NCBI RefSeq assembly: GCF_002571385.2
Contig: NW_019217795.1
Span: forward strand, 775,708-839,707
Source: Stylophora pistillata
Lineage: Eukaryota
DNA length: 64,000 nt
Reading direction: 5' to 3'
Each line of letters opens with the position of its first letter. The stretch's first letter is position 1. The notes under the pieces are model-generated. The model saw only the letters and a program-made list of their open reading frames with translations. It did no database searches and was not told where the DNA came from. Shown here piece by piece: positions 37,250-50,095 of the stretch. The position numbers and the translations under genes are program-made.

Positions 37250-37849
37250 ACACTTTAATAATCGTTGTGTGACCGAGGCAGGTTCTGATGTAAGTTGTTA
37301 TTTGAACAACGAGACACGGACTTAAATAGAGGAGGACTTCATCTTGGGGAGACAGGTATTGCCAAAATGTATAACAACTTCGCGAATAAATTACATGAAT
37401 GTAGTTGACCTACTGGCCGTCTGTTCAATTCAGAGCGTAATCGCGACCTTGGAAATCCAATCGTTTCTCACCAATTTCTCCCGCCTAAACGAGGCTTTAA
37501 ATTGGCCTCGCTAAATATCAATAGTCTTTCTGCACACATTGATGAACTAAGAATTTTGCTTTCCGACAGACCTATCGATATCTTAGCCATAAATGAAACT
37601 AAATTGGATGACACAATAGGCGATAATGAAATTCATATTTCTGGCTATGAATCTATTCGTAGAGATCGCTCTACTAACGGTAGGTCTGGAGGGGGTGTTT
37701 GTTTTTTTATTCGTTCCGAAATCAATTATTCTGTTCGCTCTGATCTAATATGTGAACAAATAGAAAGTCTGACTGTCGAAATCAAGAAGCCCAGATCAAG
37801 GCCTTTTGCCGTTATGACCTGGTATAGACCCCCTGAACTACTGAGTTAA
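37250..37849 (+). mobile_element. LINE fragment: ORF1 esterase remnant plus ORF2 AP-endonuclease N-terminus
   Basis: DLNRGGLHL-like SGNH tail, then SLNINSL..ILAINETKLD..RRDR..GGGVC..WYRPP; truncated. Confidence 0.8.
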
Positions 37850-38300
37850 ACTAACTAACTGTACTTCTTTTATAAGGAATCGAACAATAGCGGGAGATTC
37901 TCTAAAATTTTAGAAGTTAGGTGTGATCATTCTAAAGGAAATTTAGCTGCAAATCCTGTGTTTGGGATGATTTGGTTATCATAGGAAATAGGTGTGATGG
38001 TGCGACTTAAAGGAAATTTATGATGCAAATCCTGTGTGTATGATAATTTGATTATCATATAGGAAATAGTTTCTGAAGATATAATTCTAAAATTATAACA
38101 AAAAATATTGCAATGTCATGCACAATTGTGAGCCTGGTCACAGTTGGATTATTATCAACTTAAGATATCCGCGAAAATGGGGGACGTAATGTTTGAATAC
38201 TGTTAACATCTACTAAAAAAGAGATCAAGGAAACTAACAATACATGGAGTCCTCCTGCAAAGTTCAAAGGATGAAACTTGCCTGCTCTACAGTCAGTCGA

Positions 38301-39199
38301 TCATTTCAGGTCAAATTTTGTTACGTGGATCACTTGAGTATAACTGATGTAGTCAGAATCCTTTACAGTCTTAAACGGGCCATCCTCTAGCTCCTTAATT
38401 CCTTCTTCAATCTGCTCGTCAGTTAACTGATGAAGCATACTCATGTATCGGAACATCTCGTACAACTTGGATTTTGTCATAGATATCGGGTAGTTGAACT
38501 CCTTCTCTGATACGCGGACGTTTGCATTTACATCGAGCTTTCGGAGAAGTTTCCGCTTTTGGATGCCACTCTCCACCGCTACTTCCTCTACTCGTTTCGC
38601 ACTTTCGAAACAGGGGTAACCTGTGTCTATCGTGTTTACTTTGATAAATATACCACCGGGGCGTAAAGAGCGCAGGATACTTTCGTAAACGGCGACAGGA
38701 TCTGCGAAATGGTGCGCGGCACCAGTAGCTAGCACTCTATCAAAGCAATGGTTTATCTCGGAAAGAGAAAAAAACTCTTCAGCCGTTTTCAGAATGGGGT
38801 ACGTTCCGTGTCGCTTCCGTGCTTTTTCTTGCATCTCTGGGCTGGGATCCACGCACCAAATTGGTTTGGTCAATTTGCACTTTTCATAGAGTTTTTCGGC
38901 AATGAACCCCGTGCCGCTACCGATGTCAGCGACATTGTGATGTGGCTGCAAATCCAAACATTCTATCAGGACTGGAATATTTCCTTCATAATATTCCTCA
39001 TAGAAGTAATCGAACTTGTCTGCTACAGAACGATAGTGATCTGAAATAAAATAAAGAAAATGTCATTAATACATGGATTGAAGATGTTGGAGGGTTTTGT
39101 AGTTATTCTGCTTCATATGTTGTTTCTAACATTACCATCAAGCCGCCTTTCGAATTTTCCAGATACTGAAAAATCAGATGAAGAATTTTCCTTTGGCAT
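38301..39199 (-). CDS. Class I SAM-dependent methyltransferase, 2 exons (39199-39136, 39040-38301)
   Basis: Motif I VADIGSGTG, CVDPSPEM, FDRVL..AHHF, LRPGG. Exon 1 MPKENSS...RRLD splices in frame to DHYRS. Confidence 0.85.
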
Positions 39200-39385
39200 G
39201 GTTTATCCAGTGAGTTTTTAAAACAAGCCACGAACTCGACTGAGATATAAATGTCAAGCTACGAACTCGATTAAGATGTAAATGTCCAATTTCGCAACGG
39301 CGATGAACTTGAATGGAACATTTGATGAATGCTAATCACAGGGTGACAGAGGGAAAGACAGGGTGACAGAGGGACCGTTAATCTG

Positions 39386-39694
39386 TTGACAAAGAGATAT
39401 AATCCCAAAGGACAGTATTCGTCAAAGGCGATACAAATATTCAAAGATCTTAGCAAGCTCGCAAACATTCCTACTCATAAATCGTCTGGAAAAGCAAAAA
39501 TGACAGGAGGGACTATATTTTTTGATTTCAAAGATCTGAAAGACAGGCTTATTAAATTGACAGGGAGTATAAAAGCTGGTAATTCAAGTATTCAGTTGAG
39601 AAATGAAGCGATAGAAATATTAGATCACCTCGTCAAAAAGAATAAAATTTCGAAAGAACAATATAGCAAGTATATTCAGAGACACTTAACATGA
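39386..39694 (+). CDS. 5'-truncated conserved Polinton hypothetical protein
   Basis: C-terminal LKDRLIKLTGSIKAGNSS..NEAIEILD motif typical of Polinton ORFs; starts at the element breakpoint. Confidence 0.6.
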   Translation: MTKRYNPKGQYSSKAIQIFKDLSKLANIPTHKSSGKAKMTGGTIFFDFKDLKDRLIKLTGSIKAGNSSIQLRNEAIEILDHLVKKNKISKEQYSKYIQRHLT

Positions 39695-40422
39695 CAGAGA
39701 CACCTATCTATCTCAACTCTTTGACTTGTAACAATGGACCGAGTCATAATTTCACAACATCTTTTAATCCTGTGATGAGGCTTGACCCAAACAGAGAGTA
39801 TTTTATTGCTCTCGATGAAATCGCAATGTCATACAGCTGGTACAATGTGAGCAACAGCTATGACAATAACAAACTAAAATATAGTCACGATTCGGGTACA
39901 ACATGGTATGAGATTGAACTCCCAGATGGGAATTTCGCATACGAAGAACTGAACGCTTATGTTCAGAGAGAGCTAGAGGGATCAAAACATTCAGAGACAG
40001 GCATTACAATAACATTTGTCCCAGCGCTTTTCAAAGTTCTGATCGGTCTCGAAGACGGTTTTCAAGTCGATCTGCAAACCGGAAATTTTGCCGATCTCAT
40101 TGGCTTCACAAAAAAGGTTGTTACAGCAACTAGCTATGGTGAAAAATCCCCTAACATAACAAGATCTGTCGATGACATCTACGTTCACACCAACATCATC
40201 TCAGAGAGTGTTGTTGGTGGTAAACAATCAGATGTGTTGTTTCGATTCAGTGTTGACAATCTCCCTCTCTCTTTCCCTTTCCATATCGAGCCAAGGAAGA
40301 AAAAGTATAGCAAAATAAACACAGGAGCTATAAAAGATTTGCAAATCTATATCACTGATTCACTGGGAAGACCGCTCGACCTCAACGGTCTACCCATCTC
40401 ATTAACACTTCTCCTGAAATAA
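39691..40422 (+). CDS. Minor capsid protein (penton, single jelly-roll)
   Basis: NFTTSFNP.MRL, SWYNVS..NN, LPDGNF..ELN, IYVHTNII.ES, IYITDSLGRPLDLNG..SLTL pattern; position in the structural module. Confidence 0.8.
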   Translation: MTETPIYLNSLTCNNGPSHNFTTSFNPVMRLDPNREYFIALDEIAMSYSWYNVSNSYDNNKLKYSHDSGTTWYEIELPDGNFAYEELNAYVQRELEGSKHSETGITITFVPALFKVLIGLEDGFQVDLQTGNFADLIGFTKKVVTATSYGEKSPNITRSVDDIYVHTNIISESVVGGKQSDVLFRFSVDNLPLSFPFHIEPRKKKYSKINTGAIKDLQIYITDSLGRPLDLNGLPISLTLLLK

Positions 40423-40464
40423 GTGTTCAAAAACAGATATTTTATTTCATACACTTGAAATAAA

Positions 40465-40922
40465 ATGGTTCGAATACAGATGAAAAGAGATGCCAATGGC
40501 AAATACGTCTTATACAATCTTGATGACGATCACTCACTTCAAGAGGGTGAAGGGATATTTAACACTCTCAAAAATGTTGGAACTAAAATAGCTACAAAAC
40601 TCACAGGGAAAACTGCAAAGGAGATGGCTAAAAAGGCAGCTACGAAAGCGTTTGAGAAGGGAGCAGAGCAGATCGGTGAAAAGATGGGACAGTTAATCGG
40701 TGAAAAGATTTACGATAAGTTCACAAAACAGACAAACCTCAAGTAACGCATCACGAAGTACCACTAGTCACACATCACGAAGTACCACAAATAAAAGAAG
40801 ATAAAGGAGAAGAGCTTGCAAAGCTATTGAAGAAAGATAAGAAGCCGTGGTCAAAAAAGCCACCAAAAAATAAAATTGAAAAAGACGATCTCTTTAGCGA
40901 TTTCGATGACCTTTTTTTATGA
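40465..40922 (+). CDS. Amphipathic Lys/Ala-rich virion protein (protein VI/cupiennin-like), 1-nt frameshift near 40725
   Basis: GEG|IFNTLKNVGTKIATKLTGKTAKEMAKKAATKAF. The -1 frame continues KPQVTHHEVP...FSDFDDLFL to TGA at 40920-40922. Confidence 0.55.
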
Positions 40923-40956
40923 AAAAAATAATCTCTTCTTTCTTGCAAAACACATC

Positions 40957-42292
40957 ATGACCTCCATGCGAACTGCAAAATTTTCGAAGGGGTATGAGTA
41001 TTATTCATATGAGCTCGATACTCCTCTCCAATCTGCACCAGCAAATAACAACTATCAAAAGAAGGATGGGTACAAGTTTACTGTTGACACATCAACAGCG
41101 TCAGAGACTGTAGCTGACTGGCATAATGCTTATTTTGAAATGGATTTTAAACTCACAAAGATAGATAACACAACCTATGGTGCGGCTGATGCAGCTGCAA
41201 TAATCAATGGAGGTTTTAGTCTGATAAAAGACATCAAAGTTGATTTTGAGAGTGCGAGAGTTCTCGATCTTCCAAGTGCAAATCATGCTGCAAATGTAAA
41301 GAATCTCACCGAGTTTACAGAAGAACATTCGAGAAAAGTAGGCCCCCGCCAATTTCACTACCCCGACACAGCTACCGGTGCAGTCATACAAAAGTATACA
41401 ACACTTGCTCTTGATAGGAATGCGCAGAACATAGCACCAACAGACAACACTGATTACAATGAAGGATTTACAAAAAGAAAGACTCTTCTCACCACAGGTG
41501 CTGAAAACAACATCCATCTACCACCCAACCGTTTTGGCTTCTTTGACTCTTTGGAAGAGCAGTTAGCACCCAATGCAAAGGTTAGTATTTATGTTAGACT
41601 TGAAGATGATGCAAATGTGTTGTTCATAGCAAATACCGCTGCGGCAGGTAGATACATCGTGACAAAGTTCCGCTTGTGGGTACCGATAATTAAAATGAAT
41701 GTCCTTGGACTAAAGACATTTGTCGATAACTTCCTCAAACCTCACAGATGGTCTTATCTGAGAGAGGAAATTGTTGATGCGGGACCGCTTCGACAAAAAA
41801 ATGGAAAATTCAGAATTACAAATGCTATCAGAAGACCAAGGCATGTTTTCATTTGGGTTCTTAATGCAACCAAGTTTAGCGATCAGGAACAGAACATGTT
41901 TGTGTTCAACAATTTCAACATCGCAAAAGCGAGGTACTTTACAAAGGCTCAACTTCGTGTGCAGAATGGTGAAAAGTATCCCTGATCAACAACTGGACCC
42001 AAGCAGCGAGCTGACAAGAGCATGGACATATCTTGCAGACTATGTAAAGTTTGTAAGCGGCAATCTGTTCGGTCCAACAATTGATGTGAAACAATTTCAA
42101 GATCTCTATGGAATACTTTACTTTGATCTGACACGACAATCACCAGAGCTTCTTAAAGTTACAACAGGTCTGGATTTTGAGTATAGTCTCAACAACACTA
42201 CCAACGCAGACTATCACATCTATGCATTGATTCTCAATGAGGAGGAACTTAGTGTTGAAGTCATGGGTGGAAAAGCACTCATCAGGAATTAA
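40957..42292 (+). pseudogene. Major capsid protein (double jelly-roll), +1 frameshift near 41981
   Basis: DWHNAYFEMDFKL, NGGFSLIKDI, FRLWVP, RPRHVFIW, NGEKYP|DQQL, FQDLYGILYFDLT. TATCCCTGAT carries one extra C. Confidence 0.85.
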
Positions 42293-42345
42293 GTAGACTT
42301 TTCGTCTTTTTTTGGATTTCATTATGTGACTCGCATAATAAAAAG

Positions 42346-43218
42346 ATGACGACTTATTACCCTCATGGAGTAACTCTTTCAGATAATCAGAGAAGGAAGC
42401 TTGCTAAAGCTTTCAACGAAGAATCACCCATCACTCTGCGTCTCTCACACAACGAACTGACTGGTTCTGATGAGATGATGCTGACATAGACACAGATCAA
42501 GAAGATTCAGAAAGCAATAAGCAATGGAAGAGGGGTTGACCTCAAAATCAGCAACACACAGATAACAAAGGTTGCTCAAAAAGGTGGCAGCCTCTTCTCA
42601 TCACTTCTCACTCTTGGTGTAAAGCTTCTCCCAAAAGCAATGAATCTCGCCACAAAGGCTCTCCCAGGATTGGCGACAGGAGCACTCTCAAGTCTGGGCA
42701 ATTTCGCTACTGACAAGATTTTTGGAGCTGGTCAGTCAGGAGGTTTGATAATTCCACATTCAAAGATTCCACAGCTTTTACCTTTTGAAAACCGTCCCTC
42801 AGAAAAGCAGAAACAAGACATTGCAATTGCTCTTCAATCTGGTGGTGACTTGAAAATGAAACCAACAAAGAGGCAGAGTGGTGGTTTTCTCGGTACTCTT
42901 CTCGCTTCAATCGGTGAGCCGATACTTCTCAAGGCGTTGACCGGAAGCGGTATGCGAAGCGGAAGCGGAATGCAGAACAGAAAGCCGAGAGGAAGAGGTT
43001 TACAGAACAGAAGCGCGTCAGGCGGAGCCGGTAGGGCCGGCAGGGGAATGCAAAACAGACCATATTGGTTTCCACCGAGTTTTGGGGAGCCACCTATACC
43101 ATTTCTACCACAGAATGGAAGAGGGGTGAAAGGGAAAAAAAAGCAGAAAGGAAAGGGTCTGTTGCTTGGCAGAAACTCCCCCTTCAACGGAGTGCCACTA
43201 CTAAAAGATATATTGTGA
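42346..43218 (+). pseudogene. Basic Gly-rich core/precursor protein with multiple GG/GxG protease sites; in-frame TAG at 42487
   Basis: MTTYYPHGVTLSDNQ...MLT*TQIKK...QKGG|S, QSGG|L, QSGG|F, repeated GSG/GRG + MQNR, ending GKGLLLGRNSPFNGVPLLKDIL. Confidence 0.65.
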
Positions 43219-43715
43219 AAAGACCACCCTTCAAAAACAGACCAATCACAAACCTTGACATTCAAAACTGGGTCGAATACCTCAAGATTCCAAACTTTGG
43301 AGGGGTGATTTCCAGGGATCAAGTGAAAGATTGTGAGATGGGACACTCTTTCGTCATCAATCTGAACGAGTCAGATGAGCCTGGTTCACACTGGGTGGCG
43401 ATGGTCTTTGGCTCTGATCTCATCTTGTACTTTGACAGTTTCGGTCTTGATCCACCACAAGAGGTGTTGATTCTTTGTAACAAACATGGAGTCAACTACG
43501 CATTCAACAACACACATTATCAGTCATTGACAAGCGTGTTGTGTGGTTACTATTGCCTCTTCTTCTTGAATGAAGTAAATCTCAGGATTCGGTTGAAACC
43601 CTCTCTTGCTCATCAAAGCTTGTACTCTGTCTTCAACGATGTGACAGAACCTCTGTCAGTGACTGACACTGAAGCGAACGAGCGTTTCATCAAAAAATAC
43701 TTCAAAGAGGTTTGA
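43137..43715 (+). CDS. Adenain-like (C5) maturation protease; no ATG upstream of the protease domain
   Basis: INLNES..GSHWVA, YFDSFG..PP, YQS..SVLCGYYCLFFL: His, Asp, Gln and Cys catalytic residues intact. Confidence 0.9.
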   Translation, partial: KKAERKGSVAWQKLPLQRSATTKRYIVKRPPFKNRPITNLDIQNWVEYLKIPNFGGVISRDQVKDCEMGHSFVINLNESDEPGSHWVAMVFGSDLILYFDSFGLDPPQEVLILCNKHGVNYAFNNTHYQSLTSVLCGYYCLFFLNEVNLRIRLKPSLAHQSLYSVFNDVTEPLSVTDTEANERFIKKYFKEV

Positions 43716-43772
43716 CTCTGAGTCAAAAACAAAAAAAAAACCTCTTCAAACTTTCTGAAGAGGTTACAAACA

Positions 43773-46073
43773 ATGGGGTATTCTGACGGTTATCATCGAT
43801 TCAACAGGCAAGGAGGTGCAAGCAAAACAGGTCCTGCAGGACCACCAGGCCCTGCCGGTCCAAAAGGAGAAAAGGGAGACGCAGGACAACAAGGGCAAAA
43901 GGGTGAGGCAGGGCCTACTGGTCCAAAGGGAGACACAGGACCACAAGGGCCGGCAGGTCCTGCTGGTTCAAAGGGAGACGCAGGACCGCAAGAACAAAGA
44001 GGACCAGCAGGACCTACCGGTTCAAAAGGAGACACAGGTCCTGCCGGCCCTACCGGTCTACAAGGACCAAGAGGACTAGCAGGACCTACCGGTTCAAAAG
44101 GAGACACAGGTCCTGCCGGCCCTACCGGTCTACAAGGACCAAGAGGATTAAGAGGACCGGCAGGGCCTGCCGGTCCTGCTGGTTCTGACGGTTCAAACGT
44201 TGATCTTTCAAATTATCTCGACAAAACAAAGGTTGGTGATTTGCAGAAGGCTTTGAAATTCGTCAGCTCACACGGAGCTGATAGACAGATTAGCGGTCTA
44301 TCCGATCAACCCCTAAACGGTACTGCAGCTGTCAATCTGAATAAACTCAACACCGAACTCGGAAAGAAGGCTGACACATCGACCGTAATTAACGGTCTGA
44401 CAGCAAAACTTAATACCTCCACATTTAATACGCAAATAGCAAGAAAACCAAATACCACATCTGTGTTGCTCTTGGATGGAAGTCAAAAGATGACTGGCAA
44501 CCTTGATCTGAACGGTAACGATGTGATTAATTCAAAGAGAGAGAATTATCTGGGTATGACTACCGCTCAGCAGTCCACTTATGAGAACTCAAACACACTC
44601 GTCTCTCGATATGAAGCAGGGGCAATGAAGAGGCATCTAAAGGGTCTACTCGATATTACCACTCTCTCGAATGCAAATCAAACATACGTTGACAATGTGA
44701 AAAAGACAGTGTCAAGCTTTAGAAATATAGANNNNNNNNNNNNNNNNAAAACTGTTGAGAGTCTTACCCAAACGAAGGTTAATAAATCAGGTGACACAAT
44801 GACAGGAAACCTCAATCTTGGTAATAATAAAGCAGTTAACTCTGCTGCACCAAGCAGCGGAGGCGATCTCTGCAACAAAACATATGTCGACACCCTTGTG
44901 GGGGTGACCAAAACCAACCTTGAAAAACATGTCGATGACCACCTTGCTCATAGCATCAGAACCACCAATCTGAAAAACGATCTCGATTATATCATGAACG
45001 AGATTATCGGAAATGAGTTCAGCGATGAAGATGATATCACCGGCAAAGTACAAATTTACAAAGACTTTCATAAATTTGCAAAGAATGTAAAACCGTTCGA
45101 TCTTCTTCTCGACACATCAAAAGGTTACTATTCAAGTCGCTTCGGTGTGAACATGTACTCTGCCGCAAAATCAGAGTACACAGTTGTCTGTGAAATGTGG
45201 TGGGAATCCAATAAAGTTGATTCAACCTCTGTGACTCTGACTGCCACAAGCTCTGTAGAGACAGTTTCAAGGCAGCGCTGCAATCGATTCTCAAATCATA
45301 TTGTCAGTCTCATACATATGACAAAATGGAGTGATGCAACACCCAATTATTTGATGTTCGACATCGTGATAAAAAACAATTCAGGGCAGGTCTATGATCA
45401 GAAACTTCCGATTTGGGTTGTGGTTTACGGAAGCAAGGGATACCACAACAGTCTGCCTGAAGATGTTTGGGATCGATGGTACTCTTTCTATGACAAAAAA
45501 ATGTACATTTATCCACAAGTCGAACTGATGAAGGAACCGAAGGATAATGCAAACCCAGCCACAAAGAAATATGTTGATGATATCAAAACAACATTACAGA
45601 CAAAGATCAATTCAAAAGCAACCAAAACAGCGCTGACAAACGCAACAAGAAAGATCTGGTATCGAGGAAACTGTGCTCACGACAATTCATCACAGGCAAG
45701 ATTCTAAGTAAATGGAGCATCAGATCATACCACATATGTATCACAGAGCGCTAACGCTGATTTCACAGTAAACAGTTCAGACAACACAAAACTCATAATC
45801 AACAACGCTGGTATGTATCTGATCACATACACCGATGGTATCAAGTCTAAACATCTATCACATCTCAGGTTCATCTTGGACAATCCGTTCATGACCACAG
45901 CAAACGGTATATTGGTAGCGCTACCCAACACAAAAAATACTTGGAAGACACTCGCTAATACCGTTCTATTATATTTCCAAGCAAACACATCGCTGAGCAT
46001 AGCGACAGATAACAGCTCTGTTCAACTCAATGGAACTGATGACAGCTATCTGATGATTGTGAAGCAGGATTGA
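43773..46073 (+). pseudogene. Putative virion fibre: collagen triple helix, phage-fibre-like repeats and beta head; in-frame TAA at 45705
   Basis: 41 Gly-X-Y triplets with one G>E change; [10 protein letters not shown] / GDTMTGNLNLGNNK and (A/N)TKxYVD repeats. ORF 45813-46073 (INNAGMYLITY) is in the same frame after the TAA. A small N gap lies at ~44732-44747. Confidence 0.7.
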
Positions 46074-46125
46074 GATTACGCTAGTAATAAAAAAGCTAAT
46101 TTTATTATGGGATGTTCATAATAAA

Positions 46126-46626
46126 ATGACTGACGCAACCATTTTCAACTTCAACCGTATCGACTACTCTATCGGAGAGGAGAAGATCGATGAGCTCAAA
46201 GCTCTTTACAAACACTATCACAAGAAGTGGTGGTGCTCGAGGAAGATCTTCAAGAGTTTCAAACGAAAGAGTCTTCTCTGCAACCTGGGAAGCACCATGC
46301 TCATCGTTATCGGAGGGATAGCTGGAGGGATAACCATGAACCCAATCCCGCTTGCTACAATATCAGGCACTGGCCTCCTTCTCAAGACGTACACCGATGT
46401 GAAGAAGTTCGACAGAAAGATCGATATGAGCAAATTTGCCTTTACAACCTATGAGAAGATCTTGACTGAACTGAGATCCTATCTGAGAGGAAGACCGTTC
46501 GACAGTGCATCGTTTCTCAATGAGGTGAGACTCATCGATGATACAATCACAGATCTGTATCCAATCTTTCAATCGACTAAAGTACTTAAGCAGTATAAAA
46601 CACGCTTCGAGCATAATAAGGTTTGA
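46126..46626 (+). CDS. Two-TM hairpin membrane protein (SLATT-like layout)
   Basis: Basic helix, hydrophobic LGSTMLIVIGGIAGGITMNPIPLATISGTGLLL, then helical FTTYEKILTELRSYL. Confidence 0.55.
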   Translation: MTDATIFNFNRIDYSIGEEKIDELKALYKHYHKKWWCSRKIFKSFKRKSLLCNLGSTMLIVIGGIAGGITMNPIPLATISGTGLLLKTYTDVKKFDRKIDMSKFAFTTYEKILTELRSYLRGRPFDSASFLNEVRLIDDTITDLYPIFQSTKVLKQYKTRFEHNKV

Positions 46627-46712
46627 GGTTTCTAAATACTTTCCTCTTTTGAAACGAAAGAGGAAAGTGAGATCTTCTCTTTAGTAGACAGTAGGCCCTG
46701 CCTCAGGCCGAC

Positions 46713-47401
46713 CTAACCTTCCTCTTCATCAGATGAAAGGGTGTCTTTATCTTCATCTTCATCTTCTTCATCAGATGAAAGGTGACCAACGGTTGTCTCT
46801 GTGGCAGTGATTTGACATAGATGTCATTCACCTTGATCTGCAGCGTTACAGCTTCTTCACTAATATAGATCGACTCGATTATCAACGCCATCTTCACTTT
46901 GCAATATTGATCAAGATAATCAAGTGGATTCTCTTTTGCTTTCTCTCTTGATCGGAAAAGTGTGTGTATATTCTGCGTCTTCTTAGAGATGATGAGCTTT
47001 GAATAAAGAATGGGGGGTTTTCCCTATTTCTCAATCAGAGGGAGTTTCAACATTGATGCAGTTTTAGGTTCATATCCGATCTTCTCAAGATGATCAGAAC
47101 ACGGATGTTTAAACTGTTTCAATCCATCATAAAAATCAAACTCTTTTTTTGATAGTTCATAGTCTACACCCCAGAGACAGGTGGGGATTGAGTAACCAGT
47201 GAAACCACCAGCTTTATCACGACTCTCTTGCACACCAAAAGAGAAGAGGAGAGGAGACTCAATCACCAACGGTCCTGGTGTATTTTCCCCTCCACCATTC
47301 TTCGCTTCAATATTGATTCTTTGATGACCATATTGGTTGACAACGGCTTCGTGGAATATGACATTCTCTTTGTTGAGCTTTTTGATACTTGTGAGTTGCA
47401 T
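46713..47401 (-). pseudogene. T7 gp2.5-like / iridovirus DUF2738-like ssDNA-binding protein
   Basis: GPLVIESPLLFSFGVQE, GYSIPTCLW, P.LYSKLI, NPLDYL..CKVKMALIIESIYI..LQIKV, and an acidic tail SSDEEDEDEDKDTLSSDEEEG*. One stop and two frameshifts. Confidence 0.6.
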
Positions 47402-47460
47402 TGTTATTATTATCAAACATTTTCTTTAAAACATTTTTTTTGAAAAAAGCAAGTGGATAT

Positions 47461-47600
47461 TTATCTCTGAAGAATAAGTATTTCTTTCGCTTTTGCATCG
47501 TTGACACTTATCTCTGAAGAATAAGTGTTTCTTTCGCTTTTGCATTGTTGACACTTATCTTCAGAGATAAGTGTTGCTTTCGCTTTGCTTTCGCTTTCAC
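47461..47600. repeat. ~47-bp tandem repeat (2-3 copies) in the divergent SSB/ATPase intergenic region
   Basis: TTATCTCTGAAGAATAAGT(A/G)TTTCTTTCGCTTTTGCAT(C/T)GTTGACAC repeated. Confidence 0.8.
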
Positions 47601-47646
47601 AAATTCAAGAGTTATATTTTCAGCGATACTTGTAGAATAAGCTAAA

Positions 47647-48294
47647 ATGGTCAACATTCCAAAATTGACTACAGAGAGTTCAAACGGAAATCGAAAGAGA
47701 AGAGCACCCGGTGTTGACTTTCTTGATGAAGAGTATAGGATGTTGATTGCCGGTCCGAGTGGGGCTGGAAAGACAAACACGCTTATGTACATGTTGAGAG
47801 AGCCGCTGGTCATTTACGAACAGATTTTTATCTATACTCCAAACATTCACCAAGAGCTGATACAAGATCTCCAAAAGATTATGCATCAGCACTCACAGAA
47901 ACTTGGGTATGATGTGTTGCATCTGATGAATCCTGATGAAATTCTTGACACAACAGAGTATCCAAGAGTGGGCAGGAAGGTTGTGATTTTCGACGACCTC
48001 ATCACTGCTCCTAATAACGTGCAGGAAAATATCTTGAAGCATTTCGTTGATGGAAGGCATCATTTAATCTCACCGGTGTATCTGAGTCAATCATATCACA
48101 AGACTCCTGTCAACAACAGATTGAACTGCTCTCATCTCATCCTGTACAAACCTGCAATGAATTGCCATCGCGCTATGATCGCTCGTGAGAATAGCTTTGA
48201 ACCAGATCTGTTCTCAAGACTGAAACCTTTTGAATTTCTTTTCCTCGACAAGGTGAAGGAGACATGCATGAGAAATTTCGATGAAGAAATCTAA
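47647..48294 (+). CDS. A32/FtsK-like genome packaging ATPase
   Basis: Walker A IAGPSGAGKT, Walker B VVIFDD, GRH..IS.VYLSQSY, RLNCSHLIL. Confidence 0.92.
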   Translation: MVNIPKLTTESSNGNRKRRAPGVDFLDEEYRMLIAGPSGAGKTNTLMYMLREPLVIYEQIFIYTPNIHQELIQDLQKIMHQHSQKLGYDVLHLMNPDEILDTTEYPRVGRKVVIFDDLITAPNNVQENILKHFVDGRHHLISPVYLSQSYHKTPVNNRLNCSHLILYKPAMNCHRAMIARENSFEPDLFSRLKPFEFLFLDKVKETCMRNFDEEI

Positions 48295-48308
48295 CGCTTT
48301 TTCAAGAG

Positions 48309-49175
48309 ATGAAGAGTTATTGTGTCAAACAGAGAAAAAAGACTGAGTCTGTATCCGGGAGCGAAAGACGGGAGATTGCAAAAAACGGTCGTCCGATCAT
48401 CAAATCGAAGTGTGCAGAGTGTGGCATTACAAAGGTAAGGTTTCCTAGTGGTGTTACCACCACTGAAAAAAAAGGCGGGGCGCTCTTTGATGATGTAGGA
48501 AGGACCAGCACTTCGCTGTTAGAGATGGGGATGAAGGGGTTGGCTAATCTCGGACAGTACGGTCTTGCAAAGGCTGTCAATTCTAACTATGGAAAGAAGA
48601 AGATGAAGCAGACAGCAAACAAATATCTCGATCAAGCTATCGATTCTTTTGCTAACGATATGAGTAGAAAAATCGGGAGAAGTGTTTATGATGTTAATGA
48701 AGTGTTACCAATGTCAATGTATGCTCCCGATCGTGTTAATGATCCGACACACCCCCTTTATGAAGGAGGATCCTTCGATATTCACAAAGCTATCGGAAAA
48801 CTACCAAAACCGAAGAAGGGTTGGACTCTTCCAGGTCATAAGTATACAGGACCGTACAACGACCTTGCAAATCAGGTGAGGTATAACCCTCAGACGGGTG
48901 AGATTCTTGAGATTTTTGATAAGCCAACAGGACCGACTGACGCTGTCGCTATGCAACATGATGTTGATTACAGCGTCTGTACAAACAAGACAGACCCAAA
49001 GAAGTGTAAGAATGCGACTGACCGTAAGATGTTGAAAGCTCTCGATGCGATTCCAACGAGTGAGAGACAGTGGGGGCATTGGGCTGCAAGAAACATCATC
49101 AATACCAAGCAGAAGCTTGGTTTGGGTGTGGGGAAAAAAAAGCTCAGAGGAAGAAGGGGTGGCAAGAGGAATTAG
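48309..49175 (+). CDS. Zn-ribbon plus parvovirus-type phospholipase A2 domain virion protein
   Basis: N-terminal YCVK..KT...CAECG.TK; LPGHKYTGPYN (Ca-loop-like) and DAVAMQHDVDY (HD..Y catalytic). Confidence 0.8.
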   Translation: MKSYCVKQRKKTESVSGSERREIAKNGRPIIKSKCAECGITKVRFPSGVTTTEKKGGALFDDVGRTSTSLLEMGMKGLANLGQYGLAKAVNSNYGKKKMKQTANKYLDQAIDSFANDMSRKIGRSVYDVNEVLPMSMYAPDRVNDPTHPLYEGGSFDIHKAIGKLPKPKKGWTLPGHKYTGPYNDLANQVRYNPQTGEILEIFDKPTGPTDAVAMQHDVDYSVCTNKTDPKKCKNATDRKMLKALDAIPTSERQWGHWAARNIINTKQKLGLGVGKKKLRGRRGGKRN

Positions 49176-50095
49176 CAGAGGAGTTGCACAGACCGGTGAG
49201 GCGAAACTTCAGAAAACGACGCGTTATTGTCAAAGGAATCGATGAGATTTGGTGCTCCGACTTGGTTGAGATGCAAAAGTTTGCAAAGTGGAATGAGGGT
49301 TTTAGATATCTGCTGATGGTTTTGGATGTCTTCAGCAAATACGGCTGGATCGTTCCGTTGAAGAACAAGAAGGGTGAGAGTGTTTCGGAGGGGTTCAGAA
49401 AGCTTTTCGCTGAAGGGAGAAGACCGAAGAGACTCTGGGTTGACAAGGGTTTGGAGTTTAACAACAGTCATGTTAAAGATCTGATGAAAGCTGAAGGTGT
49501 TGAGATGTACTCGACAGAGAATGAGGAGAAATCGTCTGTCTGTGAGAGGTGGAATCGAACGATCAAAACGGAGATGTGGAAGCAGTTTACCATTCAGAAT
49601 AACACACAGTATCTCGACATTCTGCCAAAGATTGTCAAGAAGTACAACAATCGAAAACACAGATCAATCGGTATGACTCCGACAGAGGCTTCCAAGAAAA
49701 AGAATGAGAATGCCGTCTTTCTGAAACTCTATGGCGATCTGAGCGAATTGCGAGAGAAACCAAAGTTTGCGGTTGGCGATCACGTTCGAATCTCCAAATT
49801 CAAGCGAAAAGTGTTCGACAAAGGATTTACCCCTAATTGGACAGTGGAGATTTTCGTCGTTGACGAGGTGCAATATTCCAACCCGATCACTTACAAGTTG
49901 AAGGATCTGCTCGGGGAAGAGATCAAAGGTTCTTTCTACGAACACGAGATGTTGAGAGCAAAGCAGGATGTTTTCCGCATTGAGAAGGTTATTCGAAGGA
50001 GTAAAGGGAAAGCTTTCGTGAAGTGGAGTGGTTACCCAGAAAAATTAAACTCGTGGATTGATGAGAGAGAACTTCAGGGGGTAGGTCCTACCTAA
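49136..50095 (+). CDS. Retroviral-type (rve) integrase with C-terminal chromodomain; no ATG before the catalytic core
   Basis: ELHRP.R, WCSDL (D), LWVDKGLEF (D), VCERWNRTIK (E), YNNRKHRSIGMTP, chromodomain FRIEKVI..VKWSGY..NSWI. Confidence 0.93.
   Translation, partial: KKAQRKKGWQEELAEELHRPVRRNFRKRRVIVKGIDEIWCSDLVEMQKFAKWNEGFRYLLMVLDVFSKYGWIVPLKNKKGESVSEGFRKLFAEGRRPKRLWVDKGLEFNNSHVKDLMKAEGVEMYSTENEEKSSVCERWNRTIKTEMWKQFTIQNNTQYLDILPKIVKKYNNRKHRSIGMTPTEASKKKNENAVFLKLYGDLSELREKPKFAVGDHVRISKFKRKVFDKGFTPNWTVEIFVVDEVQYSNPITYKLKDLLGEEIKGSFYEHEMLRAKQDVFRIEKVIRRSKGKAFVKWSGYPEKLNSWIDERELQGVGPT

Follow-up and report, generated by a model that had tools for sequence, protein, structure and literature searches.

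Candidate programmed -1 frameshifts into the protease and the integrase of a Polinton-type element from Stylophora pistillata, and the conservation of both junctions among relatives

Two enzymes of a Polinton/adintovirus-type element, its protease and its integrase, appear to arise through programmed -1 ribosomal frameshifting, as the minority fusion products core-protease and PLA2-integrase, a reading to which we give a probability of about 0.78 on the basis of sequence comparison. The element lies in the genome of Stylophora pistillata, in a stretch of 64,000 nucleotides (contig NW_019217795.1 of assembly GCF_002571385.2, positions 775,708 to 839,707, forward strand) that we call the window and in whose coordinates all positions are given. 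In retroviral gag-pro and gag-pol, a structural gene carries an X_XXY_YYZ slippery site and is followed by a protease or integrase in the -1 frame without a start of its own. The element resembles these in having such a site behind a structural gene (low-stoichiometry packaging and proteolytic release are only predicted here), and differs from retroviruses in being a double-stranded DNA (dsDNA) jelly-roll element with two junctions in different genes rather than one polyprotein, in using a cysteine protease and in lacking a 3' stimulator at most loci. Its relevant features are as follows.

39347..54600, + strand: Polinton/adintovirus-type element, decayed, with every gene on this strand
42346..43218, + strand: putative core precursor (pX-like), with GG and GxG repeats, a basic tail and a conserved C-terminal peptide
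43137..43143, + strand: first slippery heptamer A_AAA_AAG, in the phase of the core gene, 24 codons before the core stop
43144..43218, + strand: dual-coding overlap, with the conserved C-terminal peptide in the 0 frame and a stop-free -1 frame
43035..43715, + strand: adenain-type cysteine protease frame (-1), with the domain from about 43224, the first ATG at 43338 and the catalytic His at 43389
48309..49175, + strand: DUF5679 and parvovirus-like PLA2 protein (PF08398, PF18930), ending in GLG and a basic tail (open reading frame, ORF, 48285-49175)
49136..49142, + strand: second slippery heptamer A_AAA_AAG, in the phase of the PLA2 gene, 10 codons before the PLA2 stop
49064..50095, + strand: rve integrase with chromodomain (-1), conserved from Trp 49160, with Asp34 at 49259 and the first ATG at 49271

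As the initial annotation had reported, an identical 13-mer occurs at 43132-43144 and 49131-49143, each time in the reading frame of the upstream ORF (42490-43218 and 48285-49175, respectively). Relative to these ORFs, the frames of the protease (43035-43715) and of the integrase (49064-50095) are exactly -1, and both stay open from the heptamer into the enzyme. The 13-mer has just these two matches in the whole window (0.02 expected; two matches in 0 of 100 shuffles). By itself the heptamer is frequent (49 occurrences in the window against 41 expected), and thus the weight lies on its position and not on its presence. The missing ATG, claimed for both enzymes, holds for the integrase, whose first ATG is residue 38 counted from the conserved Trp and so lies past Asp34, and for the protease, whose first ATG falls within the domain but ahead of the catalytic His. 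Judging from the rve match and the spacing to foamy-virus integrase, Asp34 would be the first catalytic Asp, and in the predicted integrase model it sits on a confident core strand (residues 30-37), ahead of the first Met at 38.

The argument against random decay that had been drawn from the window itself is a different matter, as this copy is decayed elsewhere (core, major capsid, fibre and PolB genes), so that one copy counts for little and the case depends on the relatives. Decay or an assembly error in one dead copy would sit well with at least four other genes being broken here and with the error-prone nature of homopolymers; it is refuted by conservation, the same layout recurring in dozens of copies as well as in relatives from independent assemblies, and we give it practically no chance. 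These sequence comparisons confirm the -1 overlaps as conserved design features of a large Polinton-type group and not decay of the window copy. They also bear out the core proposal, conserved -1 recoding from the upstream gene into both enzymes, since the overlap, the heptamer and the missing ATG each recur, and we consider it very likely, on these alignments, that the recoding is selected at both junctions.

The protease junction was compared across 35 loci (the best 30 of 61 matches in the same genome and five metagenome loci with this core gene before the protease), 32 of which were anchored, the exceptions being L057, L060 and L079. The layout is -1 throughout these 32; in 30 of them an in-phase heptamer, usually A_AAA_AAG but in some cases A_AAA_AAA or A_AAA_AAC, is followed by an open -1 frame. 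A -1-frame stop stands directly 5' of the heptamer in seven loci, and therefore the open frame begins at the site itself. An ATG precedes the catalytic His in 3 of 28 same-genome copies and in all four metagenome loci (two at the domain start). Given that this set was filtered for an open frame, its open-frame figures are partly circular, and a non-circular control, for which every distinct occurrence of the core C-terminal peptide was caught by one motif, stands in their place. With a protease following (n = 22), -1 stops are present in 1 of 22 occurrences and a run of at least seven A's in 21; with none following (n = 10), -1 stops are present in nine and such a run in one, the lone case being L057, whose protease is broken up by an insertion. 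The peptide (22 residues starting with GxG, 43153-43218 in the window) is kept on core proteins and on certain other ORFs, and the -1 product lacks it; the loci listed for it are L066, L067, L069, L094, L101, L114 and L127. It could be a candidate protease-activating peptide, by analogy with pVIc, which has this role in adenovirus.

Beyond these, a search of viral contigs with the single protease gave no match and one with the protease alignment gave four loci. Among 43 distinct adenain loci from outside the same genome, 22 lie behind another gene and have their own ATG, 12 are preceded by a core gene or a PLA2X gene that has an A-run, and nine are truncated or broken. Seven insect-type PLA2X-adenain junctions are divided between -1 (four), in frame (two) and +1 (one), with an ATG five codons ahead of the adenain domain in all except L153. 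In this distant element (L153:3425-3895), PLA2X is followed by adenain in -1, the frame opens just before the A-run and no ATG precedes the domain.

For the integrase we assembled 130 loci, i.e., the best 30 of 43 same-genome matches and 100 viral or metagenome loci (the metagenome part being the best 80 of 541, with one duplicate dropped). Scoring was possible for 89, the remaining 41 having no anchor motif (16), being truncated (10) or having no GxG motif (7), no PLA2 upstream (6) or no match (2). The integrase is in the -1 frame in 52 loci, in +1 in 18 and in frame in 19, the last comprising nine A-run variants and ten clean PLA2-integrase fusions without an A-run. The predicted in-phase heptamer is present at 46 of the 52 -1 loci, its 3'-most form being A_AAA_AAG in 18 of 19 from the same genome and A_AAA_AAA (14), A_AAA_AAC (11), A_AAA_AAG (1) or A_AAA_AAU (1) elsewhere, and the expected lack of a start recurs, with an ATG before Asp34 in just five of the 52 (five not scorable downstream). 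These loci have 17 different spacer lengths, from 17 to 74 nucleotides. The -1 state is found in 14 of 29 clusters at 80% identity, reaches down to 48% identity to the window and is spread over the tree (87 of the 89 rows), in which +1 and in-frame A-run loci are scattered tips among -1 sisters. Both ORFs are intact in 39 of 52 -1 loci as against 10 of 27 that are +1 or in-frame A-run (p = 0.0014, the loci not being independent). Six of the ten clean in-frame fusions make up one supported group, and genome bins supplied five more PLA2-integrase junctions, of which two have the -1 layout, two are in frame and one is +1. A PLA2 search of viral contigs returned mostly loci with no enzyme behind, and integrases without an upstream PLA2 gene have their own ATG in 12 of 12 insect-type loci (L143-L150, L153-L156). 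The -1 layout is thus conserved among relatives, as had been proposed, and is not universal, given that clean in-frame fusions and ATG-started enzymes also occur. Short GC-rich hairpins are inserted in the variable spacer of L008, L010, L014, L019 and L054, mostly more than 9 nucleotides from the heptamer.

The off-state copies raise the question of whether the A tract is a DNA-level length switch, with rare in-frame copies supplying the fusion in trans, or whether the in-frame state is the true one and -1 its decayed form. Both versions draw on the A-run variants among the 89 integrase loci (nine in frame and 18 +1) and on the database proteins, where 44 of 62 long matches carry both PLA2 and rve. 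Most of these fused proteins have a single member, however, -1 is the commonest state and the one tied to intact ORFs, and the off-state copies are placed as tips among -1 sisters; behind the protease site, moreover, the 0-frame peptide is conserved together with the open -1 frame. We regard both versions as very unlikely. The clean in-frame PLA2-integrase ORFs do indicate that the fusion is viable. The protein database also has ATPase-PLA2-integrase and adenain-PLA2-integrase ORFs, seen as single ORFs in P0041; P0043-P0047, P0049 and P0057 (adenain, PLA2 and integrase with 2 members, or ATPase, PLA2 and integrase with up to 13), and with GxG motifs between the domains these are candidate self-processing polyproteins.

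Independent translation of the enzymes, whether from a near-cognate start, from a start further downstream, by re-initiation at the stop of the upstream gene or from a spliced mRNA, would find its material in the GTG that overlaps the core stop in the window copy and in 9 of 32 loci, in the near-cognate codon within the spacer of 23 of 52 integrase loci and in the ATG present in a few relatives. The stop-overlapping codon varies, however (GTA 10, GTG 9, TTA 8, ATA 2, ATG 1, CTG 1, CTA 1), and GTG was rejected as the protease start because it is not conserved. Splicing is made less attractive by the spacers, which are purine-rich (29% pyrimidine) and contain an acceptor-like motif in a single case among 52, a start at the first integrase ATG would omit the predicted core strand with Asp34, and the open -1 frame back to the heptamer is left unexplained by any such route. 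We consider independent translation quite unlikely.

Given selected recoding, the slippage is likely ribosomal rather than that of a polymerase. It is the best mechanism because of the A_AAA_AAC sites with only six A's and the stem-loops in four relatives. Nine of the 11 -1 integrase loci whose longest run is six A's have exactly A_AAA_AAC (post hoc; p about 0.001 if independent), and a stem-loop lies 5-7 nucleotides 3' of the heptamer in four of these nine (L120, L128, L129 and L136; z values -3.4, -2.6, -3.8 and -4.5), with the inner arms of L128, L129 and L136 differing in sequence and keeping complementarity. A_AAA_AAC is ranked among the most shift-prone heptamers on mammalian ribosomes in a source that also gives influenza PA-X as a precedent for low-level shifting without evident stimulators (PMC5009743), and the usual heptamer-to-stimulator spacer is given as 5-9 nucleotides (PMC7618472). 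In programmed transcriptional slippage, RNA polymerase would stutter on A8-A10 and the edited mRNA would encode the same fusions in one frame. The same-genome sites (runs of 8-11 A without a stimulator) would suit this, as would some -1 loci with a run of 6-9 A and no canonical heptamer (L062, L069 and L114) and the varying phase of the run's 3' end among distant loci. It does not account for the nine loci that use only six A's, four of them with a hairpin at ribosomal spacing, and adding or dropping a base would suit +1 too, yet the protease junctions are -1 in 32 of 32. Transcriptional slippage thus seems improbable to us for the group as a whole; in the window, A_AAA_AAG and the lack of a stimulator mean that the polymerase could still be responsible.

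Programmed ribosomal frameshifting has several observations against it. The downstream stimulator that was looked for is missing from the window, where minimum-free-energy folds (pseudoknots not modelled) gave z values between -0.4 and +0.7. Folding 21 protease junctions to a consensus (-4.4 kcal/mol) gave no conserved structure either, and z fell below -2 in just 6 of 45 folded integrase sites compared with 2 of 45 controls. The window's heptamer, A_AAA_AAG, is the optimum given for bacteria in PMC5009743, which gives A_AAA_AAC for mammals. The canonical heptamer is missing in 6 of the 52 -1 integrase loci, 18 loci are +1 (seven of those otherwise intact), and a broader phase count outside the same genome is flat (14 in phase, 9 and 14 in the other phases). 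The 9 of 11 test for A_AAA_AAC was post hoc on related loci, and Lys-Asn codons could yield the pattern. A Met stands at or near the protease domain start in some relatives (L066, L069, L143-L147 and L149). As to release, the strict adenain site, (M/I/L)XGG or (M/I/L)XGX|G, is absent directly before either shift site, occurring only at core residues 77 and 150 and nowhere in the PLA2 protein. The case as a whole is one of DNA sequence comparison. RNA reads (four raw runs) cover the bins around either junction at a mean depth no higher than about 2, with no indels or joints listed there, and contigs from three RNA runs and one unlabelled run have no junction-spanning joint among those listed; both results weigh neither way.

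If both enzymes are made by ribosomal frameshifting, most ribosomes would complete the short upstream protein, while a small number would move back one base at the two Lys (or Lys-Asn) codons and read on through the enzyme. For the A_AAA_AAG lineage without a hairpin we predict a low rate, to which a slowing of the ribosome on the poly-Lys A tract may contribute. If mavirus and adenovirus are a guide, the upstream part would then carry a few enzyme copies into the capsid, and the protease would release them by cutting at GG|X or GX|G immediately ahead of the shift site; we lean modestly towards such packaging and release. Mavirus virions are reported to contain integrase and protease, with cleavage at GG|X or GX|G (PMC6048507), PLA2X is presented as a virion-module gene with a pX-like part (PMC8502044), and an adomavirus core protein appears cleaved in virions (10.1101/341131). 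GxG motifs do exist at both junctions of the window element and fit the relaxed GX|G rule; the proposed cut at GxG|V does not, as known rules place it before the last Gly. In several of the clean in-frame fusions, a GWG is retained three residues ahead of the conserved Trp of the integrase.

The element shares with the mavirus virophage an rve integrase and an adenain-type protease, found in virions in mavirus and known from genes here; the mavirus enzymes are given as separate gene products, with no frameshift mentioned in the sections covered (PMC6048507). Phage lambda G/GT is similar in its low-level conserved -1 shift that sets an assembly-protein ratio in a dsDNA virus, and differs in its bacterial ribosome and in yielding chaperones rather than packaged enzymes (PMC5009743). 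Alpha adintovirus PLA2X likewise combines, as described, a parvovirus-like PLA2 domain with pX-like segments and belongs to a module of virion genes (PMC8502044). It is a single gene, whereas its counterpart here is split in two, and the insect-type integrases start at their own ATG. For adintoviruses, Buck et al. 2024 (preprint, PMC11071296) list -1 sites that KnotInFrame predicts for Penton and Hexon-Adenain; the parts covered contain no test of their conservation. Here, in contrast, one gene encodes the PLA2 part and another the pX-like part, and a frameshift links an enzyme to each. The supplement to that preprint has four PLA2X-Adenain fusion entries, two of them beside a short PLA2X, and a list in which one PLA2 gene is followed by an integrase annotated from an internal Met; its protein file 2 gave no integrase fusion under the name patterns searched, and the annotated genome maps could hold one. 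Term look-ups in PMC8502044, PMC11131425, PMC8097293, PMC11296320, PMC11161782, 10.64898/2026.10.13.758929 and 10.1101/2021.01.25.428050 revealed no PLA2-integrase frameshift, and we found no report of one in the Polinton and virophage literature, subscription papers and Repbase reports being outside the search. As far as these sources go, the protease half is anticipated by Buck et al., the integrase half is without a report that we found and the mechanism itself is known.

In the widest interpretation, for which we see roughly even odds, a broad group of animal Polintons would have independently evolved gag-pro/gag-pol logic twice in one dsDNA genome, with a membrane-entry PLA2 protein ferrying the integrase and a core protein ferrying the maturation protease into the capsid, in ratios set by -1 frameshifting. 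The lineage of the window would do so with a bare poly-Lys A tract and no RNA stimulator, lineages would change among three arrangements, a frameshift, a polyprotein in one frame (even adenain-PLA2-integrase) and genes that stand apart, and integrases annotated from the first ATG would be truncated and lack one catalytic Asp. This would offer a testable answer to how an integrating dsDNA virus loads integrase into its particle, and at what dose, and the conserved tie between integrase and a putative entry protein would argue for integration after infection and not only for transposition inside the cell. Counts of intact Polintons would change, as two apparent frameshift lesions would be design, and enzyme starts in annotations would be flagged as wrong. 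To our knowledge, there are few established cases of programmed -1 frameshifts in eukaryotic dsDNA viruses, and the group would provide a candidate with natural variants from the textbook signal to a bare A tract.

The enzymes and the core protein are recognizable to different degrees. Protease profiles match S273R of African swine fever virus (5e-6) and adenain (8e-5), with invariant His, Asp and Cys. The integrase matches PF00665 at 30.6 bits (just below the cut-off) and PF00385, and foamy-virus integrase matches too. The protein at 42.3-43.2 kb has zero Pfam or PHROG matches and resembles the X part of PLA2X weakly and without significance (E 0.3-2.6); with this resemblance, its GG repeats and its basic character, we infer that it is a core precursor with a virion role. 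In the window copy, its gene has a premature stop at 42487-42489, leaving the ORF 42490-43218. One more gene is readily named.

47641..48294, + strand: A32/FtsK-type packaging ATPase (PF04665), upstream of the PLA2 gene

Elsewhere, the element is eroded. The capsid-region ORFs (40831-42292) are broken, with a frame shift near 41.9 kb, and have no profile match; the relative L062 has PF21738 (the two were not compared with each other). A fibre-like gene with collagen repeats (43722-46073) has a weak BclA_C-like head and is split at 45705-45707. Motifs that we take to be those of PolB, a family B polymerase, are recognizable in 50863-54351, where the gene is broken near 50.7-50.9 kb and at 53113-53115; the region has no PF03175 or PDB match. 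Rho_N-type repeats stand in front of the PolB region (50174-54351) and an endonuclease VII-like segment inside it, the same domains being present in L061 and L062. No matching pair of terminal inverted repeats was found for the window element, and its right end enters fragments of long interspersed nuclear elements (LINEs) and gaps, so that the copy looks truncated. Three related 28-nucleotide palindromes at 54453-54595, 3' of PolB, are probably remnants of the terminal region. RNA reads from related copies over 44749-46053 are mostly of one orientation, opposite to that of scattered reads elsewhere, and have loose ends, possibly pointing to a host transcript that carries element fragments. 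The flanks (37409-39062, 54671-57925 and 61231-62253) hold, by eye, LINE-like fragments, a minus-strand methyltransferase-like ORF and a receptor-kinase-like C-terminal exon.

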